From the IMG/VR virus record IMGVR_UViG_2534682162_000005: a stretch of 37,194 nt of DNA, one strand, 5' to 3'. Source of the DNA: a virus (Duplodnaviria > Heunggongvirae > Uroviricota > Caudoviricetes). A program made the position numbers and the translations under genes. The notes beneath the pieces are model-generated. The model did no database searches and was not told the DNA's origin. It saw only the letters and a program-made list of their open reading frames with translations. Below, one piece after another: positions 24,533 through 37,194 of this stretch (positions within the stretch are counted from its first letter, which is position 1; every line of letters starts with the position of its first letter).

Positions 24533-25444
24533 ATGGACCAAACCACCGACATTCAGGCTTCTGAAGAATTAACCCTGCCCGGCAATCATGCAGCGGCATC
24601 TGCTGATGGCTTAGTTGTCGATAATGCCAACGACAACGCAGGTCAGGAAGAAGGCTTCGAGATTGTCCTGAAAGACGATGAGAAACCAAAACAAGACCCG
24701 GCAACTAATGCTGAATTTGCCCGTCGCCGCATCGAACGCAAACGACAGCGTGAGCTTGAGCAGCAGATGGAAGCGGTTAAGCGTGGAGAGTTGCCGGAGC
24801 ACCTGCGGGTGAACCCTGAGTTACCAAAACAACCAGACCCTAACGATTATCTTTCCGAAGACGCACTGGCTAAGTACGACTATGACCAGAGCCGCGCACT
24901 GGCGGCCTTCCAGCAGGCAAACAGTGAATGGCAGATCAAGGCTATGGACGCACGAAGCCAGGCTGTCGCCGAGCAGGGTCGCAAAACTCAGGAGTTCACC
25001 CAGCAATCAGCGCAATACGTCGAGGCAGCCCGTAAGCACTACGACGCAGCGGAAAAGCTCAATATCCCTGACTATCAGGAGAAAGAGGATGCATTCATGC
25101 AACTGGTGCCGCCAGCAGTCGGTGCCGACATCATGCGCCTCTTCCCGGAGAAGTCCGCTGCTCTCATGTATCACCTTGGTGCTAATCCTGAGAAAACACG
25201 CCAGTTGCTGGCGATGGACGGGCAATCCGCGCTGATTGAACTCACTCGACTGTCAGAACGTTTAACTCTCAAGCCTCGAGCCAAGCCTGTTTCAGAAGCC
25301 CCGTTACCTGATGAACCCATTCAGGGGCACGCTGTTGCTGCAAATATCTCTGCGATTGAAAAGCAGATGGAAGCGGCAGCAAACAAAGGGGATGTAGAGA
25401 CGTACCGCAAGCTTAAGGCGCAACTGAATAAAGGAATTCGATAA
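24533..25444 (+). CDS. Scaffolding protein (P22 gp8-like), 303 aa
   Basis: Track ORF; size and sequence (…[30 protein letters not shown]…) match P22 gp8. Confidence 0.9.
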
Positions 25445-26739
25445 TGGCATTAAATGAAGGTCAACTGGTCACGTATGCTCTGGATGAAATCATCGAAACC
25501 GTCCAGAACCTGACGCCAATGGCGTCAAAAGTGACAAAATACACCCCTCCGGCAGAATCCATGCAGCGTTCAAGCAACACCGTGTGGATGCCTGTTGAGC
25601 AGGAAGCGCCAACGCAGACTGGCTGGGATTTAACTGGCAACGCAACCGGGATTCTGGAGCTCTCCGTGAAATGCAACATGGGCGATCCGGATAACGATTT
25701 CTTCGAGCTTCGTGCAGATGACCTGCGTGATGAACGTTCTTACCGTCGCCGCATCCAGGCATCCGCCAAAAAACTGGCGAATAACATTGAGTCAGCAATT
25801 GCCAAACAGGCAACCGAAATGGGCTCACTTGTTGTTCACGATACCCGCGCAATTGGTCCATCTACTGGCCTGTCTGGCTGGGATTTTGTGTCTGATGCAG
25901 AGCGCCTGATGTTCTCCCGTGAGCTAAACCGCGATATGGGCATCAGTTACTTCCTGAACCCTGACGATTACCGCAAAGCAGGCCGCAACCTGGTAGATGG
26001 TGACATCTTTGGGCGCGTTCCTGAAGACGCGTATCGCAACGGTACTATTCAGCGTCAGATTGCTGGCTTTGATGAAATTCTTCGCTCACCGAAACTTCCG
26101 GCAGTTACCAAGTCAACCGCTACTGGTGTAACTGTTTCTGGTGCGCAGAAGTTTAAGCCGCAGGCATACACCCTTGATACCGATGGTAACAAAGAGAACG
26201 TCGATAACCGTGTTGCAACGGTGACCGTATCCTCCACCACCGGATTTAAGCGCGGCGACAAAATCAGCTTCACTGGTGTGAAATTCCTGTCTCAGATGGC
26301 GAAGAACGTGCTGACTGATGATGCGACTTTCTCAATCACCCGTGTGATCGATGGTACTCACATCGAAATCACGCCGAAGCCGATTGCGCTGGATGACGCG
26401 TCACTGACAAAAGAAGAGAAGGCTTACGCTAACGTAAACACCTCTCTTGCTGATACCACTCCGGTAAACGTTCTGAACGTGGCAACAACCACCGCTAACG
26501 TGTTCTGGGCTGATGACTCAATCCGTCTGCTGTCTCAGCCGATCCCGGTAACCCATGAGCTGTTTGCTGGCATGAAAACGTCTTCCTTCAGCATTCCTGG
26601 TATTGGTGTTAACGGCATCTTCGCAACGCAGGGTGATATCAACACTCTGTCTGGTAAGTGCCGTATTGCTGTGTGGTATTCAGCATGTGCTGTACGACCA
26701 GAGGCAATTGGTGTTGGTCTGCCTAACCAGACCGCGTGA
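25444..26739 (+). CDS. Major coat protein (P22 gp5-like), 431 aa
   Basis: Track ORF; [20 protein letters not shown]...[14 protein letters not shown] matches P22 coat. Confidence 0.95.
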
Positions 26740-30923: not shown

Positions 30924-32219
30924 ATGGCTACTTGGCAAGGATCAAATGGCGGATTGTTGGCTGGTATCGGCGGCGTCAACTCAAACGCTCCGAGCGTAAA
31001 TGACATCGGCAATACGCTTCAGCTTATCAGGCAGAACAATGATATTGAGCGTTCAGGCGCTAACAATGTTGGGCTGACTGCTTTGCAAGGCCTTTCAGGC
31101 ATTGCGGGGGTGTTTCAGCAGGAAAAGCAGGCTCAGAGGCAGAAAGAATTTCAGCAGGCATACGCTAATGCTTATGCGTCTGGTGATCGCGGTGCTTTGC
31201 GTCAGTTGGCTACTCAATATCCAGACCAGATTGAATCTGTTCGTAAAGGCATGGGATTCATTGATGAAGACCAGCGCAATTCTATCGGCACCTTAGCGGC
31301 TGGCGCACGCCTTGCGGCCTCGTCTCCAGAAGCAATGCAATCATGGCTGCAAAACAACGCCAATGAGCTGGCGCGCGTCGGTGTTGACCCTAATAACGTT
31401 GCTCAGATGTATCAGCAGAATCCTTCAGGATTTGGTGAGTTTGTTGATCACCTTGGGATGGCTGCTCTTGGTCCTATTGATTACTTCAATGTTCAGGACA
31501 AGATGGCAGGTCGTGAGATTGACCGAGGCAGGCTGGCAGAGACAATCCGCAGCAATCAGGCCGGAGAAGCACTAACAGCTCGAGGTCAGGACATCCAGAT
31601 ACGTGGACAGAACATCAGCGCACAGAATGCTGCTCTTTCCCGAGAAATACAAAGAGCAGAATTACAAGAAAAGGCTCTGGACAGACAGATAGCCAGAGAA
31701 AGCAATCAGTTAAAGCTTGAAGAGCTAAAACAGAAACAGGCAGATGTTCGGAAAAAGGCTGACATAGCCCGCGCTGACAGGCAGGCCGCCGCTCAGGGGG
31801 CAGTTGATACGTTCAGCACCGCGCTTGATTCTCTCAACGAGATAGAGCAAAGCCCCGGCCTTTCAAAAGCAGTAGGAATTCGCTCAGCGTTTCCGACAGT
31901 TCCTGGCTCTGATGCGGCTAACTTTGAAGCAAGGCTCGACACCTTTAAAGCTCAAACATTCCTTCCTATGGTGCAGTCCCTGAAGGGTATGGGCGCTCTT
32001 TCAGATGCTGAGGGTAAAAAATTATCCGATGCGGTTGGTGCCCTAAGCCCCAAAATGAGTGAAAAGGCTTTTCGTGACTCTATCGGAAAGATTAGAAATC
32101 AGCTTGAAAGCAAGTTGAGCACTGTTAAAAAACAGTTTGATTATCAGGAGCCGGTTCAGAATATGCCAGGGAAACAATCTACTACTGGCAGTAACTTTTC
32201 TTCACTATGGGGTGATTAA
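30924..32219 (+). CDS. Ejection protein (P22 gp20-like), 431 aa
   Basis: Track ORF; position after gp7; Q/A-rich composition. Confidence 0.75.
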   Translation: MATWQGSNGGLLAGIGGVNSNAPSVNDIGNTLQLIRQNNDIERSGANNVGLTALQGLSGIAGVFQQEKQAQRQKEFQQAYANAYASGDRGALRQLATQYPDQIESVRKGMGFIDEDQRNSIGTLAAGARLAASSPEAMQSWLQNNANELARVGVDPNNVAQMYQQNPSGFGEFVDHLGMAALGPIDYFNVQDKMAGREIDRGRLAETIRSNQAGEALTARGQDIQIRGQNISAQNAALSREIQRAELQEKALDRQIARESNQLKLEELKQKQADVRKKADIARADRQAAAQGAVDTFSTALDSLNEIEQSPGLSKAVGIRSAFPTVPGSDAANFEARLDTFKAQTFLPMVQSLKGMGALSDAEGKKLSDAVGALSPKMSEKAFRDSIGKIRNQLESKLSTVKKQFDYQEPVQNMPGKQSTTGSNFSSLWGD

Positions 32220-34216
32220 TGGCTAAAGCATGGAAAGATGTTATCGCCTCTCCACAGTATCAGGCGTTAGCACCAGAACAAAAAGCGCAGGCTCAGGAGC
32301 AATACTTCAATGAAGTCGTGGCCCCGCAAGCCGGAGAAAATGCAGAGCAGGCTAAGCAAGCTTTCTATGCAGCCTATCCATTGCCATCTGTGCAGCCAGT
32401 GGAGACACAGCAACCAGTAGCACAGCAACAACCACAGCAAAGTGGATTTATGTCTGATCTTGGCGAAGCAGTAAAAGAGACTGGTCGCGGACTGGTGCAG
32501 GCTGGCGTGAACGTGGCAAACATACCTGCATCAGTTGCCGATGCTGTAACGAGCGCGGCGGCTTGGGCTGGCGGTAAACTCGGCATTGGCGATGGTACAT
32601 ATCAACCAGCACCACGAGTAACAACGCAGGGATTAGAGCAGGACTTTGGCCTTCAGCAAGGCGCGCTGACTCCACAAACGACAGAGGGAAGGGTATTTGC
32701 TGAAGCATTGCCTTACCTCACTCCTGCTGGCGTTGAGAGAGCGGCAACACAGGCACCAACACTTGCTGGTCGAATTGCTCAGGGGGCAACTCGCCTTCTA
32801 GCAGAAAACGCAGTTGGATCACTTGCTGCAAATAGTGCGAAAGATGATGCGGAAGCACTCGCCACCGATTTAGGCGTTGGCGTTCTGGCTGGCGGCGCTA
32901 TTAACGCTGCCGGACGTGGATTAGGCGCTGCTTATCGTGGCGTTCGTGGTGCTATTGCACCAGAAGCGCAGCAAGCTATCAGATTTGCAGAGCGTGAAGG
33001 AGTGCCTCTGCACACCACAGACCTGTTACAGCCTACTTCCCGCGTCGGGAAAATGGCGCAGACTACAGCAGAAAATATTCCCCTGGCTGGCACAAGCGGA
33101 ATGAGAGCAACGCAACAGGAAGCGAGAAGTCAGTTGGTGCAGAGATTTGCTGATAAATTCGGCGAGTATGATCCAGCGGTTGTTATTGACAGCCTTAAAG
33201 CGAAAACATCAGGAATTCGTCGTGCCGCCGGTAATCGACTGGAGCAGGTTCAGAATGCTATGGCTGGAGTAAACATTCAGCCTGCGCGAGCAATTCAGCA
33301 GATTGATACAGAAATATCTAACCTGCAGAAGCTTGGTAAGGTTGCTGATAACGAGACTATTTCAAAACTTCAGTCCTATCGTGATGAGCTTGTTCGCAAT
33401 GCTAGTCCTGATGGTCCGGTAAATCTGGATTTGAAGCAATTAAGCGATCTGCGCAGCCAGTTCAGAATGGACGTGAAGGGGGAGCGACCAGTGTTACCAA
33501 ACCGTTCCGATGCTGCCATTCAGCGCGTTTACAAGGCGATGACAGACGATATCAATGGTGCCATTGGTCAGAATCTTGGCAACGATACTCTCCGTAAATA
33601 TCAGCAGGCCAATGCCGTCTACGCTGACGAAGCGGCGAAACTAAAGAATACCAGGCTGAAGAATGTTCTCATGAAAGGCGATCTGACGCCGGAAGTTGTC
33701 AACAACATGCTATTCAGCAAGAACAAATCGGAAATTAAGACGCTGTATAACTCAGTTGGTCGTGTTGGCAGGGCGCAAATGCGCAATGGCATCATTGGAA
33801 AGGCGATGGAGAAATCAGGGGGTTCCCCTGATCAGTTCCTTCGACAGCTTAACATCCTGCAAAACCAGACTGGCATCACATTTAAGGGGCAGGACGCTGC
33901 TTATCTGAAAGGATTGAAAAACTACCTGCAATCCACGCAGCAGGCTGCAAAAGCGGCAGTAACAACACCAACAGGGCAGCAAACCATCCCGTTCATTATC
34001 GGGTATGGGACAGCAATGAACCCGGCGACAACTGGCGCAGCGGTAAGCTACGGACTTCTTACTCGCGCCTATGAGAGTGAGCCATTCAGAAATGCAATGC
34101 TACGAATGGCAAACACACAACGCGGATCGACAGCGTTTGAGAAAGCCATGCAGCAAGCGCAAAAAGCGATTAATGCACTGACGCAGGGTGCGAAGTCTGA
34201 TTCGTTGTCAGAATAG
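32219..34216 (+). CDS. Ejection protein (P22 gp16-like), 665 aa
   Basis: Track ORF; last gene of the ejection-protein triplet; ATGG overlap with the upstream gene. Confidence 0.75.
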   Translation: MAKAWKDVIASPQYQALAPEQKAQAQEQYFNEVVAPQAGENAEQAKQAFYAAYPLPSVQPVETQQPVAQQQPQQSGFMSDLGEAVKETGRGLVQAGVNVANIPASVADAVTSAAAWAGGKLGIGDGTYQPAPRVTTQGLEQDFGLQQGALTPQTTEGRVFAEALPYLTPAGVERAATQAPTLAGRIAQGATRLLAENAVGSLAANSAKDDAEALATDLGVGVLAGGAINAAGRGLGAAYRGVRGAIAPEAQQAIRFAEREGVPLHTTDLLQPTSRVGKMAQTTAENIPLAGTSGMRATQQEARSQLVQRFADKFGEYDPAVVIDSLKAKTSGIRRAAGNRLEQVQNAMAGVNIQPARAIQQIDTEISNLQKLGKVADNETISKLQSYRDELVRNASPDGPVNLDLKQLSDLRSQFRMDVKGERPVLPNRSDAAIQRVYKAMTDDINGAIGQNLGNDTLRKYQQANAVYADEAAKLKNTRLKNVLMKGDLTPEVVNNMLFSKNKSEIKTLYNSVGRVGRAQMRNGIIGKAMEKSGGSPDQFLRQLNILQNQTGITFKGQDAAYLKGLKNYLQSTQQAAKAAVTTPTGQQTIPFIIGYGTAMNPATTGAAVSYGLLTRAYESEPFRNAMLRMANTQRGSTAFEKAMQQAQKAINALTQGAKSDSLSE

Positions 34217-34306
34217 CCTTTCAAACACCAGGAACGTGCAAAAACCAAATATGTAGAACGCGAGGTTTATCGTATCCCTCTGCATAGGCGATACCTTTGC
34301 TGATTG

Positions 34307-34792
34307 TTATCTGATGCTACTGCTACTGTTGCATGTTACCGTGTTTCCAAATCCTGAATTGCAGTTTGTGTAAGTGTCAACTCGTGTTGGATAGGGTTGA
34401 GTTATAACAGGCTGTCTCGCTTTTTGCTCGATCGCTTGCATTGTGTTTACAGCCTGATAATTCAATAAAGCCTGCTGGAATGCTTGGCTTTGTGCTATTT
34501 GTTGGGCTTGTTCTTGGCTTTGTAATTGAACATAAAGATTCTGAAGCTCAAGTCTTGCCTGTGCGTCACTTATCTTGCCTTCATCGACACCTTGCCCGAG
34601 CATCTTTGCAGCAAGGACATACAGCTTAGGTGTTGGTGCTGATGCCATGCGTGAGTCGTTCTTCACACTGGCATCAAGGCAATTAGCCATATCGCTAAGC
34701 TTTTGATAGCGTTGTTCGCAACTTGCTTGATAGTCACTTACTTTTGCGCATCCAACCAGCAGAAGCGGGATAATTAACAGTGATTTTTTCAT
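34307..34792 (-). CDS. Lipoprotein, about 162 aa, in the P22 sieA position (candidate superinfection-exclusion moron)
   Basis: Track ORF 34307..34828; Met at 34792 has AAGGAGA SD; signal peptide MKKSLLIIPLLLVGC with lipobox LVGC, no Asp at +2; Q-rich C-terminal half. Confidence 0.65.
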   Translation of the reverse strand: MKKSLLIIPLLLVGCAKVSDYQASCEQRYQKLSDMANCLDASVKNDSRMASAPTPKLYVLAAKMLGQGVDEGKISDAQARLELQNLYVQLQSQEQAQQIAQSQAFQQALLNYQAVNTMQAIEQKARQPVITQPYPTRVDTYTNCNSGFGNTVTCNSSSSIR

Positions 34793-34862
34793 ATGGTTAA
34801 CTCTCCTTAGTTTTTCACAGGATATCATGAAGGCAATGCCATTTTAGCCGGAAACTAGATTT

Positions 34863-35162
34863 CTATGTTTCCTTTTTATTATTGCTATACATGGTCTTAA
34901 GCGTTTCAAAAACCATTTTCTTAACCATATCAGATTGTTGTTCTGCCATACGCTCTGCATCGTCAATGTAAACGGATTCAGAGCTTTGTTTAGCCAATGA
35001 TTCTTCAATCGCTGCAATTATCTCTGAGTTCAGCGACCTGTTATTCATCTTCGCGCGCTGTTTAATTTTCGCGTGGAGTTCATGCGGAAGTCTCAAGTGA
35101 AACTGCGCCTCGTCGTATTTGCTGTACATCCTTGATGCCTCACCAGTTGGGTGGAATGGCAT
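34863..35162 (-). CDS. mnt: Mnt-like ribbon-helix-helix repressor, 88 to 99 aa
   Basis: Track ORF; ...AQFHLRLPHELHAKIKQRAKMNNRSLNSEIIAAIEESL...DAERMAEQQSDMVKKMVFETLK parallels P22 Mnt; start at 35162 or 35129. Confidence 0.75.
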   Translation of the reverse strand: MPFHPTGEASRMYSKYDEAQFHLRLPHELHAKIKQRAKMNNRSLNSEIIAAIEESLAKQSSESVYIDDAERMAEQQSDMVKKMVFETLKTMYSNNKKET

Positions 35163-35202
35163 CGTAACCTACTGGATAAATACTCAATAGTACCATTTCG
35201 GT

Positions 35203-35225
35203 ATGCAATCACATCATGGTTGCAT
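35203..35225. promoter_or_regulatory. Palindrome ATGCAA-N11-TTGCAT between divergent mnt and tailspike (candidate operator)
   Basis: atgcaa at 35203-35208 and ttgcat at 35220-35225 are reverse complements; placement matches Omnt/Pant in P22 but the sequence differs. Confidence 0.35.
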
Positions 35226-35250
35226 CATATCATTCGTCTGGAGCAATGAA

Positions 35251-37194
35251 ATGTCAGATATCACCGCAAATGTTGTGGTAAGCATGCCTTCGCAACTCTT
35301 CACTATGGCTCGTTCTTTTAAAGCCGTAGCCAATGGCAAAATTTATATCGGTAAAATTGACACTGACCCGGTAAATCCTGAAAACCAGATTCAGGTTTAT
35401 GTGGAGAACGAAGACGGTTCTCACGTTCCTGTTTCGCAACCAATCATCATTAACGCTGCTGGATATCCGGTATATAACGGACAGATTGCCAAGTTCGTAA
35501 CTGTGCAAGGCCATTCCATGGCTGTATATGATGCGTATGGTGCGCAGCAGTTCTATTTTCCAAATGTGCTGAAGTACAACCCTGATCAATTACGAACAAT
35601 TCTTGAAGGAAGTATTATTGATTCTTCAGGCGATGTTTTTGGCTCTCCTGTGCGTGATTTTGAATATTTTGGCGCAGTAGGTGATGGTGTTGCCGATGAC
35701 ACTAATGCAATTAAATCCGCGGCTGCATGGGTTACTTCTGGAAATTACCGGCAAATAACTACCAGAGAGCAAAAGATATATCGCGTAACATCAACCGTTG
35801 ATTTTAATTTCGCTAACGGCCGCGGTCACTCGATCCTGATGAAGAGTCCGATTCGACCTGACGACGGAACAGGGATTGCGTTCCTGATTCAAAATACAAG
35901 AAACTCCACATTTGACCTTAAGGTTGATGGTGGTGGCGGGACGTTAGTTGATTACACCCAAGCTGACCCCGCAGGGGCACAAACAGCGTTCTATATTCGC
36001 GGTGTTCGTGAGTGTGATATCAATGTTAATGGAGTTGGCTATCTAGGCCGAGTCCTCCGTACCAATGGTTTGGATGCTGCAACCGGAGGGACCATTAAGA
36101 TGTCTTTTAATACCTTAAGCATCAATACAGGCGACCGTTCAGGTGCGGGTGTCTCATCACGATGTGGTCAGGCTTATTATTTGCAAGGCGACAGTTCCGC
36201 ATGGGGTAAGATTCAAACAGCTTGGATTCAATGGGATAGCTATGGTTCAGTCCATGATGGGCTTACTGACTTTACCGTAGATAACATCGAATTCGGAGCA
36301 GACAATATTGGTGGACTTAAGTTTCTTGGTATTCGTACTGCGCATATAAATACCATCTCTGGTGGGGACGAAACTAATACTAACACAGTCGTGTACTTCG
36401 GCCCGACTACATCAGGTCAGCACTGCCAGGGAGTGCATGTAAATAGAATATTCAGCACCTACGGTGCAATAGGCGTTGAGTTCAACGGAAATCCTTCAAG
36501 CTCAACTACAGGTGAGTTTTTTGTAGAGAGTATAACAACCACTAATAATACTAATTGTGGCATCCGAGTTAGTAACTGTAGTAGTTCTTACTTTGGGCTG
36601 TACAGTACAGGTGATGCTACTGGCATTAAGTTGGCTGGGGTATGCCGGAACGTACGCTTCAGGAATATTCACATCCAAAGCATATTCAGCGCTATTGTTG
36701 CAGAGTCAGGGGCTAACATCGGTAATATTTACTTCGAAGGTAGGATAGTTGGAAACAGCGGCGCAACAAATGTGGATATTACATCAGCCACAGTTGGGAA
36801 AGTTGATTTCGATAAAGTTATGTGCACTGCCCCTAGCGGAGCATACTCTATACCAGTTGCAAACGTTGTTAGCGTTAGGAATGGAGCTATTGACCTGTCT
36901 GGTACTGGCACAGCTTTCCCTTTAGGAACGGCAAAGGTAGTTATTAATAACGACGGATTTGTTACCAGAAATAGAGGGGCTGGATCTATTTCAGCGGGTA
37001 ATCAGACGATTGTGATAAATCATGGTCTTGCACAACAGCCAACAGAAATATGTGTGACGCCATTATCAACAGCAACTGGGTTTAGAGTGCTTAATATTAC
37101 AGCGACATCATTTGATGTGAGATTATCCTCTGCATTAGGTGGTTCGGATCCAGCTTGGACATTCAATTGGTTTGCATCATGTGAGTATCATTAA
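35251..37194 (+). CDS. Tailspike: P22 gp9-type N-terminal head-binding domain fused to a divergent beta-helix receptor-binding domain, 647 aa
   Basis: Track ORF 35203..37194; Met at 35251 ([13 protein letters not shown]...) with GGAG SD; first about 110 aa match P22 tailspike; remainder diverges ([18 protein letters not shown] motif). Confidence 0.9.

Follow-up and report, generated by a model that had tools for sequence, protein, structure and literature searches.

The stretch analysed here, referred to below as the window, comprises 37,194 nucleotides of a Caudoviricetes sequence (IMG/VR record IMGVR_UViG_2534682162_000005), and its region 34216-35251 is the 'ant moron', a remnant of the immI region, of a P22-like (Lederbergvirus) E. 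coli prophage, an assignment well supported by the P22-type gene order with Inj_translocase, gene 16 and the head-binding tailspike. The moron holds leftward genes that lie antisense inside the late operon and are flanked by the ejection gene 16 and the tailspike gene 9; here these are the genes of an Mnt-type repressor and of a predicted lipoprotein, and no arc, ant or sieA was found between the gene 16 end at 34216 and the tailspike start at 35251. The reading favoured overall, which is held tentatively and falls a little short of an even chance, is that of an immI-remnant moron with Mnt and its dyad operator, the lipoprotein of which would act in the lysogen envelope against incoming phages. 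The following features are referred to throughout:

30924-32219: gene upstream of gene 16, matching Pfam Inj_translocase at 5e-78
32219..34216, plus strand: open reading frame (ORF) of a gene 16-type DNA ejection protein of 665 amino acids (aa), the last late-operon gene ahead of the moron
34287-34895, no strand assigned: presence/absence cassette of 609 bp, with the lipoprotein gene, the 70-nt spacer and the last 11 mnt codons
34307-34792, minus strand: lipoprotein gene, 161 aa, MKKSLLIIPLLLVGC, with a signal peptide at 1-14, the lipobox L12-V13-G14-C15 (codons 34759..34748) and Ala at +2
34803..34808, minus strand: Shine-Dalgarno sequence AAGGAG of the lipoprotein gene, read from the sequence, 10 nt ahead of ATG 34792
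34850..34872, minus strand: hairpin GGAAAC-N11-GUUUCC over the mnt stop codon, with no U-tract and not a canonical terminator
34863-35129, minus strand: mnt-type repressor gene, 88 aa, with an N-terminal ribbon-helix-helix (RHH) domain and a C-terminal Mnt tetramerisation helix
35161..35187, minus strand: Pmnt-like leftward promoter, by homology, with -35 TTGAGT (35187..35182), a 15-nt spacer and -10 TACGAT (35166..35161)
35189..35205, no strand assigned: candidate Mnt operator AGTACCATTTCGGTATG, with the dyad TACC (35191-35194) and GGTA (35200-35203) centred at 35197
35203..35225, no strand assigned: palindrome ATGCAATCA-N5-TGGTTGCAT of the preliminary description, at the junction of the operator flank and the tailspike leader
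35251..37194, plus strand: tailspike gene (ORF) with a head-binding domain, truncated by the window end; the start is that of the Prokaryotic Genome Annotation Pipeline (PGAP), and the P22 gene 9 leader and N-terminus align

The lipoprotein gene begins exactly 70 nt past the mnt stop on the same strand, at Met 34792, where its homologues and the PHROG profile also begin, the upstream ATG 34828 being used by no homologue. Thus the preliminary description was right about the distance, the strand and the lipobox LVGC, and only its length of 162 aa has to be changed to 161 according to the homologue starts. VSe13 and Gally keep TAAGGAGAGTTAA despite differences in the sequence further upstream. 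The basic n-region, the hydrophobic h-region and the lipobox [LVI][ASTVI][GAS]C that mark a substrate of signal peptidase II are present in all homologues inspected, and the signal peptide is the only hydrophobic segment of the protein. The +2 residue, which is Ala16 in the window, is Ala, Val or Thr and never Asp in 31 homologues, as the Lol rule demands, and the protein is predicted to be targeted by the Sec and Lol routes and sorted to the outer membrane, facing the periplasm. The lipobox Cys15 does not vary across the 46 aligned homologues; Cys25, Cys38 and Cys154 are invariant too, a further Cys is found near 145, and the two conserved cysteine pairs would fit periplasmic disulfides. In the AlphaFold 2 (AF2) model built with 46 sequences (mean predicted local distance difference test score, pLDDT, of 71.5), a helical N-domain at 18-70 (pLDDT 83-89) is followed by a long Gln-rich helix at 76-125 and by a C-terminal beta-hairpin that carries the second cysteine pair. 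The ratio of non-synonymous to synonymous substitution rates (dN/dS) among close relatives is 0.04-0.11, and therefore the gene is maintained by purifying selection.

The protein is matched over its whole length (positions 1-161 of 161) by phrog_6067 at 6.5e-110, which is annotated as of function unknown, and neither a family nor a defence match was obtained for it in Pfam, NCBIfam and PADLOC. Structure prediction followed by a structural search, which had been proposed as a check in the preliminary description, gave no fold match from which a function could be read: two AlphaFold models were tried with Foldseek against BFVD and PDB, with nothing below an E of 0.5, and the sequence-profile search of PDB was uninformative. 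No BLASTP alignment of SieA types A-C to the lipoprotein appeared at E up to 100, which agrees with the earlier statement that only mnt and an unrelated lipoprotein are present, with no arc, ant or sieA; likewise, no similarity to Bor, Lom or virulence lipoproteins was detected in Pfam, PHROGs and NCBIfam. The metagenome label 'TraF/TraO/TraN' on an identical protein concerns about the first 30 residues only, mostly signal peptide, and was dropped.

A profile search extended the family to 248 representatives at E <= 1e-3, lipoproteins of about 120-170 aa and of the same architecture, in which the lipobox is followed by the motifs VGxxQxxCE, CL, KLYLL and GxISDxxARxELQ, a variable linker and the C-terminal TTNC-x3-G-x4-C-xSY; no Pfam family was found for the members. 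One remote member lies antisense in another phage-like late cluster and another in an integrative element with a P4-type integrase and DUF3987, while several are on contigs too short for their context to be read. At 90% identity the closer relatives form about 94 clusters, of which the named ones are all from Enterobacterales and nearly all labelled 'hypothetical', and at least eight genera of enterobacteria are represented. The lipoprotein gene abuts the gene 16 3' end in convergent orientation wherever a locus was examined, and this was found in ten further loci of E. coli, Salmonella phage VSe13, Citrobacter, Providencia, Morganella and Yersinia. The gene order from the tailspike side is as follows:

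Window E. coli: mnt, then the lipoprotein
Providencia: mnt, a 61-aa ORF with two transmembrane segments, the lipoprotein, with gaps of about 10-20 nt
Gally and Citrobacter: mnt, a second, unrelated lipoprotein on the opposite strand, the lipoprotein
VSe13: mnt, an ant fragment on the opposite strand, the lipoprotein
E. coli O104:H4: an RHH repressor of another type, an overlapping 104-aa signal-peptide protein, the lipoprotein 25 nt further on, with an intact arc-ant beside them
Morganella and Yersinia ruckeri: the lipoprotein alone, directly facing the tailspike, with no repressor

The lipoprotein is accompanied by three types of RHH repressor or by none, and its pairing with mnt is not obligate. 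The O104:H4 moron has the P22 architecture with the lipoprotein replacing sieA. The gene 16 neighbours encode proteins of 614, 641, 665, 704, 728 and 788 aa, and a tie of the lipoprotein to a single gene 16 type was rejected.

Several genes that share these loci deserve mention in their own right. The 104-aa protein of E. coli O104:H4 FWSEC0009 (L013 4011-4325) has a cleavable signal peptide and no Pfam family, and its gene overlaps the RHH gene by 4 nt; the RHH repressor, the 104-aa protein and the lipoprotein look like a three-gene leftward operon beside arc-ant. The uncalled 61-aa ORF of Providencia rettgeri (L012 ~880-1066), which lies between mnt and the lipoprotein gene, encodes two hydrophobic helices and is preceded by AAAAATAAACAATTGTGAGG, which recurs directly upstream of the mnt-less Morganella lipoprotein gene, and this shared sequence hints at a deletion series. 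The opposite-strand lipoproteins of Gally (gene 14, L002 4228-4647) and Citrobacter (L011 2578-2982), with the lipoboxes LSGC and SGGC, are mutually unrelated, and one of the two weakly matches a PEGA domain. Genes of envelope proteins seem to accumulate in the ant moron.

The boundaries of the insertion were obtained from a BLASTN comparison of the window with the lipoprotein-less but otherwise nearly identical morons of LR-50 and K_EC180, in which the homology is confined to 34104-34286 and 34896-35205, and 46 bp stand between the homologous flanks where the window has the 609-bp cassette, that is, in the presence/absence pattern of a moron. The homology of Sf101, also without the lipoprotein, likewise begins at 34896. 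Since the cassette carries the last 11 mnt codons, the lipoprotein gene moved together with the mnt 3' end, and on these boundaries it is taken as a moron-type cassette that would have travelled in this company.

The lipoprotein gene is antisense to late transcription. A scan of 34150-35350 detected no terminator between mnt and the lipoprotein gene, the RNA fold of 34785-34885 on the minus strand amounting to -17.6 kcal/mol (z = -1.89), and no convincing promoter was seen within the 70-nt spacer, so that read-through from Pmnt is the likeliest source of lipoprotein mRNA; upstream of the Morganella lipoprotein gene a TATAAT is present. Co-transcription with mnt appears reasonable from this layout, and expression of the lipoprotein from the prophage via Pmnt is considered probable. 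The mnt-lipoprotein operon of the preliminary description is thus upheld as far as the missing terminator and the tight clusters of O104:H4 and Providencia are concerned, and is weakened by the lipoprotein standing alone in Morganella and Yersinia by the opposite-strand gene that intervenes in Gally, VSe13 and Citrobacter, and by P22 itself, where sieA is transcribed from a promoter of its own behind an mnt terminator.

The longest ORF of mnt is 34863-35162 (99 aa), and its likely start is ATG 35129, on which PGAP (in identical prophages) and the protein clusters agree and which is preceded by the Shine-Dalgarno sequence GGTGAGG, the alternative ATG 35162 overlapping the inferred -10 hexamer. 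Consequently, the distance between mnt and the tailspike, previously given as 90 bp, is 88 bp from the long ORF and 121 bp from the likely start. The N-terminal Arc-like RHH domain is present (Pfam Arc PF03869, 1.4e-14; PDB 1MNT, 1.2e-18, residues 6-78), as is the tetramerisation helix (Pfam Repressor_Mnt PF11423, 3.4e-12; PDB 1QEY, 1.2e-6, residues 56-83), and the identity to P22 Mnt is 47%, all of which confirms the P22 Mnt-like repressor named earlier. Between the mnt alleles of HS and VSe13 there are 6 non-synonymous and 31 synonymous changes (dN/dS 0.03), which points to purifying selection on mnt where it is measurable. It is well supported that a full-length and functional-looking tetrameric RHH repressor of the Mnt type is encoded, for which DNA binding and repression are predicted. 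The adjacent ant that P22 Mnt represses is missing, neither arc nor ant being at the locus; in E. coli HS, where an ant was sought for this Mnt type, it is found elsewhere, under a divergent and different helix-turn-helix gene and with no copy of the operator. Rfam gave nothing relevant, and no sar-like RNA was found with it. Since there is no arc-ant neighbour, Mnt could regulate only its own leftward transcript and the residual rightward transcription toward the tailspike. In phage CUS-3 (L018 3211-3740), two tandem mnt-like genes are followed by three genes on the same strand, hkcB included, toward gene 16, which makes a further mnt-led multigene leftward cluster in the ant moron.

A motif like CTCAATAG, the complement of which is the -35 (TTGAGA) of the annotated P22 Pmnt, occurs in every mnt upstream region, and a dyad follows it directly at an offset that is fixed across the loci; the candidate operator of the window stands at the same offset as the annotated P22 Omnt. 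The three classes of the Mnt beta-strand match three dyads at this single fixed position:

P22: beta-strand HFNFRM, dyad GGTCCAC-G-GTGGACC (the annotated Omnt)
L, Gally and Citrobacter: beta-strand QFNLRL, dyad AGACCAC-N-GTGGTC(T/C); in Providencia one half-site is kept and the second is degenerate
Window, Sf101, VSe13, HS, LR-50 and K_EC180: beta-strand QFHLRL, dyad TACC-N5-GGTA

In the five aligned loci that share the Mnt N-domain of the window, CAAT[A/C]GTACC[A/G]TTT[C/A]GGTATG is kept while the sequence to its right diverges, and a search for TACC-N5-GGTA in six further loci showed the dyad to be the sole copy near the moron in each of them. Within the window the pattern occurs twice against 0.13 expected. 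On the covariation and the fixed position, it is likely that Mnt binds the TACC-N5-GGTA dyad at 35191-35203 as its cognate operator, the centre of which lies 54 nt from the tailspike start codon. The second exact copy (TACCACTCCGGTA), at 26454-26466 within the ORF 25444-26739 of the virion-gene block, is probably coincidental, yet it is the sole other candidate Mnt site in the prophage. The covariation of Mnt residues and operators represents a small natural specificity series for RHH repressors. The leftward promoter, directly upstream of which the dyad stands, was placed by positional alignment with the annotated P22 Pmnt (TTGAGA-17-TATCAT) and with those of L (TTGTGG-17-TATGAT) and Gally/VSe13 (TTGTTG-17-TACGAT).

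In the preliminary description, the part of the operator was given to the palindrome ATGCAA-N11-TTGCAT (35203-35208 and 35220-35225), by which Mnt would control tailspike transcription. The palindrome itself is real: it extends to 9-nt arms with 89% complementarity, lies 26-48 nt before the tailspike ATG and is kept in Sf101. However, its frequency is no better than chance, as a perfect 6-nt inverted repeat with a gap of <=20 appears in 47%, and a 9-nt-arm repeat with <=1 mismatch in 21%, of the dinucleotide shuffles of the 121-bp intergenic region. The Mnt of LR-50 is closely similar, with an identical DNA-binding N-domain, and yet that locus is without both arms in this register, as are K_EC180, HS and VSe13; in these four loci with the same DNA-binding domain ATGTAA stands in place of the left arm, and no right arm is present at that spacing. 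The hexamer centres are 17 bp apart, a spacing other than that in the operators of P22, L and Gally. The right arm belongs to a segment of the tailspike leader that varies among loci with this Mnt domain, and a TTGCAT/TTGTAT motif is met again in gene 9 leaders of phages that have other Mnt types. Up to GGTATG a single base separates LR-50 from the window, after which LR-50 passes into a P22-like gene 9 leader. Because the palindrome is absent from loci with the same Mnt while the operator flank is kept, it is regarded as a by-product of the joining of this flank to the tailspike leader, and its service as the Mnt operator is very improbable, the adjacent TACC-N5-GGTA dyad being the better candidate by position and covariation.

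As to the setting, the site between genes 16 and 9 was named 'ant moron' by Villafane et al. 2008, who distinguished ten types in sixteen genomes (PMC2629481), and is a hypervariable moron not expressed from the late message (PMC2629481, PMC8022706). Morons with mnt only, without arc or ant, are known in ST64T, ST104, Para1 and L (PMC8022706, PMC2629481), the phage L paper describing an L mnt without arc, ant or sieA (PMC8022706), and sieA itself is found in 22 of 66 P22-like phages (PMC10883804). The E. coli B7A prophage moron is already drawn in Fig. 3 of Villafane et al. 2008 (PMC2629481), and B7A is 97.4% identical to 34200-35300 of the window over the full length. In a survey of 5426 complete E. 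coli genomes, the whole arrangement of the window was present in at least 106, the lipoprotein gene in 186, with O26 Shiga toxin-producing E. coli (STEC) and the O104:H4 outbreak lineage among them, and this Mnt type with its upstream region in 268. The layout is accordingly common, one of the variants of this hypervariable region that had been drawn before, and an mnt that lacks arc and ant is nothing unusual. In the P22 record the same interval contains sieA with its own promoter, the mnt terminator, orf59a, mnt, arc, sar, ant and a terminator, with overlapping Pmnt and Pant promoters and the operators Oarc and Omnt; the placement of the lipoprotein in the sieA slot is therefore confirmed by its gene-16-proximal, antisense position.

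The window prophage also encodes a cI-type repressor, a DnaB-type helicase, the antiterminator Q, a terminase and an injectosome translocase. The gene 16 product is named 'lytic transglycosylase domain-containing protein' or 'DNA transfer protein' by PGAP in identical prophages, and no Pfam match, Phage_P22_gp16 included, was obtained for the 665-aa protein. The tailspike Shine-Dalgarno sequence GGAG is at 35240-35243, and the upstream in-frame ATG 35203 is an unused start. At the other end, the gene of a host oligosaccharide transporter of the major facilitator superfamily (LacY family) occupies 1-1248 and is followed directly by genes of a torI-like excisionase, eag and DUF551; E. coli O27:H7 B4103-1 matches 1-2500 at 100% identity. 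This end (1-2500) contains no integrase, the whole window contains no tRNA, and in the strain ZF8-1 only an integrase fragment comes after the tailspike.

According to the favoured reading, the lipoprotein mRNA of the lysogen would probably arise by read-through from Pmnt, and the protein would be anchored in the outer membrane and face the periplasm, disulfide-containing and mostly helical, where it would block a step between adsorption and DNA ejection of incoming phages, as the functional counterpart of the inner-membrane SieA that holds the same slot in P22. An anti-phage role is favoured because of the sieA-equivalent slot, the periplasmic location, the occurrence on several kinds of mobile elements and the precedents of Cor, Llp and SieA. 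By analogy with these, an anti-phage envelope function of the lipoprotein is possible, though its chances are put visibly below even; superinfection exclusion as such is plausible from the position and the cellular location, and homology lends it no support. A number of observations weigh against the favoured reading. Two remote family members are in ordinary chromosomal settings, one among uvrC-pgsA-bio genes and the other downstream of a resistance-nodulation-division (RND) efflux operon (the chromosomal and P4-type settings being at L023 6208-6633, L025 5001-5429 and L026 5001-5390), and the chromosomal settings suit a general role in the envelope no less than one specific to phages. The matches to Cor (phrog_1119, E 0.035, residues 1-31), restricted to the signal peptide and a few residues after the lipobox, and to T5 Llp (8a60_B, E 2, residues 1-30), mostly signal peptide, were both dropped. 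The solitary lipoprotein gene of Morganella and Yersinia ruckeri belongs here too, as does the inferred Pmnt spacer (35167-35181): VSe13 and K_EC180, which have two extra A, and likewise L, Gally and P22 have 17 nt here, against 15 nt in Sf101, LR-50, HS and the window, and the shorter spacer could mean a weaker transcription of mnt and the lipoprotein gene in the window lineage. A simple consensus promoter scan found nothing upstream of mnt or of the lipoprotein gene, and no rightward promoter resembling P22 Pant is left, its hexamers being degenerate, so that the tailspike is presumably expressed by read-through of the late operon, across which no plus-strand terminator was detected in the moron by the scan of 34150-35350. 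Literature searches retrieved no study of the lipoprotein and no experimental or transcriptomic data.

The main rival explanation makes the lipoprotein a factor of lysogenic conversion or host fitness, for instance in envelope integrity, in stress or in serum resistance, after the model of lambda Bor, with no exclusion and with Mnt merely autoregulating. The housekeeping chromosomal contexts of remote homologues speak for it, as do the breadth of the family and its conserved architecture, which suggest a general periplasmic function, the frequency of the gene in pathogenic lineages, e.g., O26 STEC and O104:H4, and the lack of a defence-family match; however, the strict placement at the gene 16 end, which is the sieA slot, the recurrence on several kinds of mobile elements and the absence of detected similarity to Bor, Lom or any virulence lipoprotein leave it rather improbable. 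Less probable still is that the lipoprotein masks or inactivates an outer-membrane receptor from the periplasm, as Cor and T5 Llp do with FhuA, with no action on the ejection machinery of P22-like phages; mechanistically, this would still be a form of exclusion. For Sf6, a phage of the P22-like group, OmpA or OmpC serves as the secondary receptor, and the protein of the window, for which an outer-membrane anchor and an orientation toward the periplasm are predicted, is small, disulfide-containing and prophage-borne like Llp and Cor, and has weak matches to the Cor family and Llp over its N-terminal 30 residues; but these matches consist in essence of signal peptide and lack significance, Llp is only half as large, the predicted fold (an extended 50-residue helix and a hairpin) is a different one, and no partner is inferable from the data.

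Two further explanations appear very unlikely. One of them regards mnt and the downstream ORF as functionless passengers of an immI remnant that decays after the loss of arc-ant, a possibility raised for L mnt in the phage L paper (PMC8022706) and suggested also by the degenerate Pant, the Pmnt spacer cut to 15 nt and the ant fragment that persists in VSe13. Against decay, both ORFs are intact in hundreds of genomes, the dN/dS values are those of constrained genes (0.04-0.11 for the lipoprotein, 0.03 for mnt in HS versus VSe13), the operator dyad is kept while its flanks diverge, and the lipoprotein is conserved across at least eight genera. The other assigns a role in the lytic cycle, e.g., in lysis or release or in the shielding of progeny from inactivation on cell debris, which T5 Llp does as its second role. 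In the T5 lytic cycle Llp is an early product, and the lipoprotein gene sits inside the late gene cluster; it is, however, antisense to the late operon, the transcription of which would oppose its expression, far from the lysis cassette and dispensable in close relatives without the cassette.

A bolder form of the exclusion idea would have the lipoprotein found a new class of exclusion proteins that are anchored in the outer membrane and span the periplasm, the long helix and C-terminal Cys-hairpin of which hinder the assembly of the trans-envelope gp7/gp20/gp16 ejection channel of incoming P22-like phages, from the outer-membrane side as SieA does from the inner membrane, with the ant-less Mnt retained for lipoprotein expression and for keeping rightward transcription off the tailspike in lysogens, and with the unannotated relatives forming a widespread envelope anti-phage family; this is thought unlikely. 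If it were true, the relatives on phages, satellites and chromosomes would be a family missed by the current defence catalogues. More generally, if the lipoprotein excludes phages, it would bear on the prediction of host range and on phage therapy against O26 STEC and O104:H4-type lineages, and would provide an outer-membrane counterpart to SieA. Beyond the lipoprotein and the Mnt/operator covariation, the locus is an ordinary catalogued variant of the hypervariable region.

With the ant morons of Villafane et al. the locus shares the site between genes 16 and 9, the antisense genes in the late operon and the mnt homologue beside the tailspike, and the lipoprotein gene figures in that work merely as one of unrelated genes of unknown function (PMC2629481). 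The arrangement and the idea of moron influence on tailspike expression, discussed earlier for P22 (PMC2629481), are already in the literature; the lipoprotein family and its breadth, the sieA-slot equivalence in O104:H4, the cassette boundaries and the Mnt/operator covariation were not described in the literature found. The likeness to the Mnt/Omnt system of P22 consists in the two domains, the gene pointing away from the tailspike and CTCAATAG (the Pmnt -35) followed by the dyad at a fixed offset. P22 differs in the beta-strand (HFNFRM versus QFHLRL in the window) and in the operator (GGTCCAC-G-GTGGACC versus TACC-N5-GGTA), while the window is without arc, sar or an ant target, its Pant hexamers are degenerate, and its Pmnt spacer has 15 nt. 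SieA of P22, present in only a subset of phages, has in common with the lipoprotein the slot beside the gene 16 3' end, the orientation and the prophage-expressed region; it is, however, a multi-pass inner-membrane protein with its own promoter behind the mnt terminator, whereas the window protein is a secreted lipoprotein with no terminator upstream, with no sequence similarity to SieA and without its topology. The Cor proteins of phi80, N15 and HK022 and T5 Llp are likewise small lipoproteins of the outer membrane that phages encode, with disulfides and with an action exerted from the periplasm, from which the lipoprotein of the window differs in size and predicted fold, the similarity being at the level of the signal peptide only. 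In phage T4, Sp and gp5 make an inhibitor-enzyme pair, and the adjacent genes of a periplasmic lipoprotein and of an ejection protein with a muralytic domain may recall pairs of this kind.

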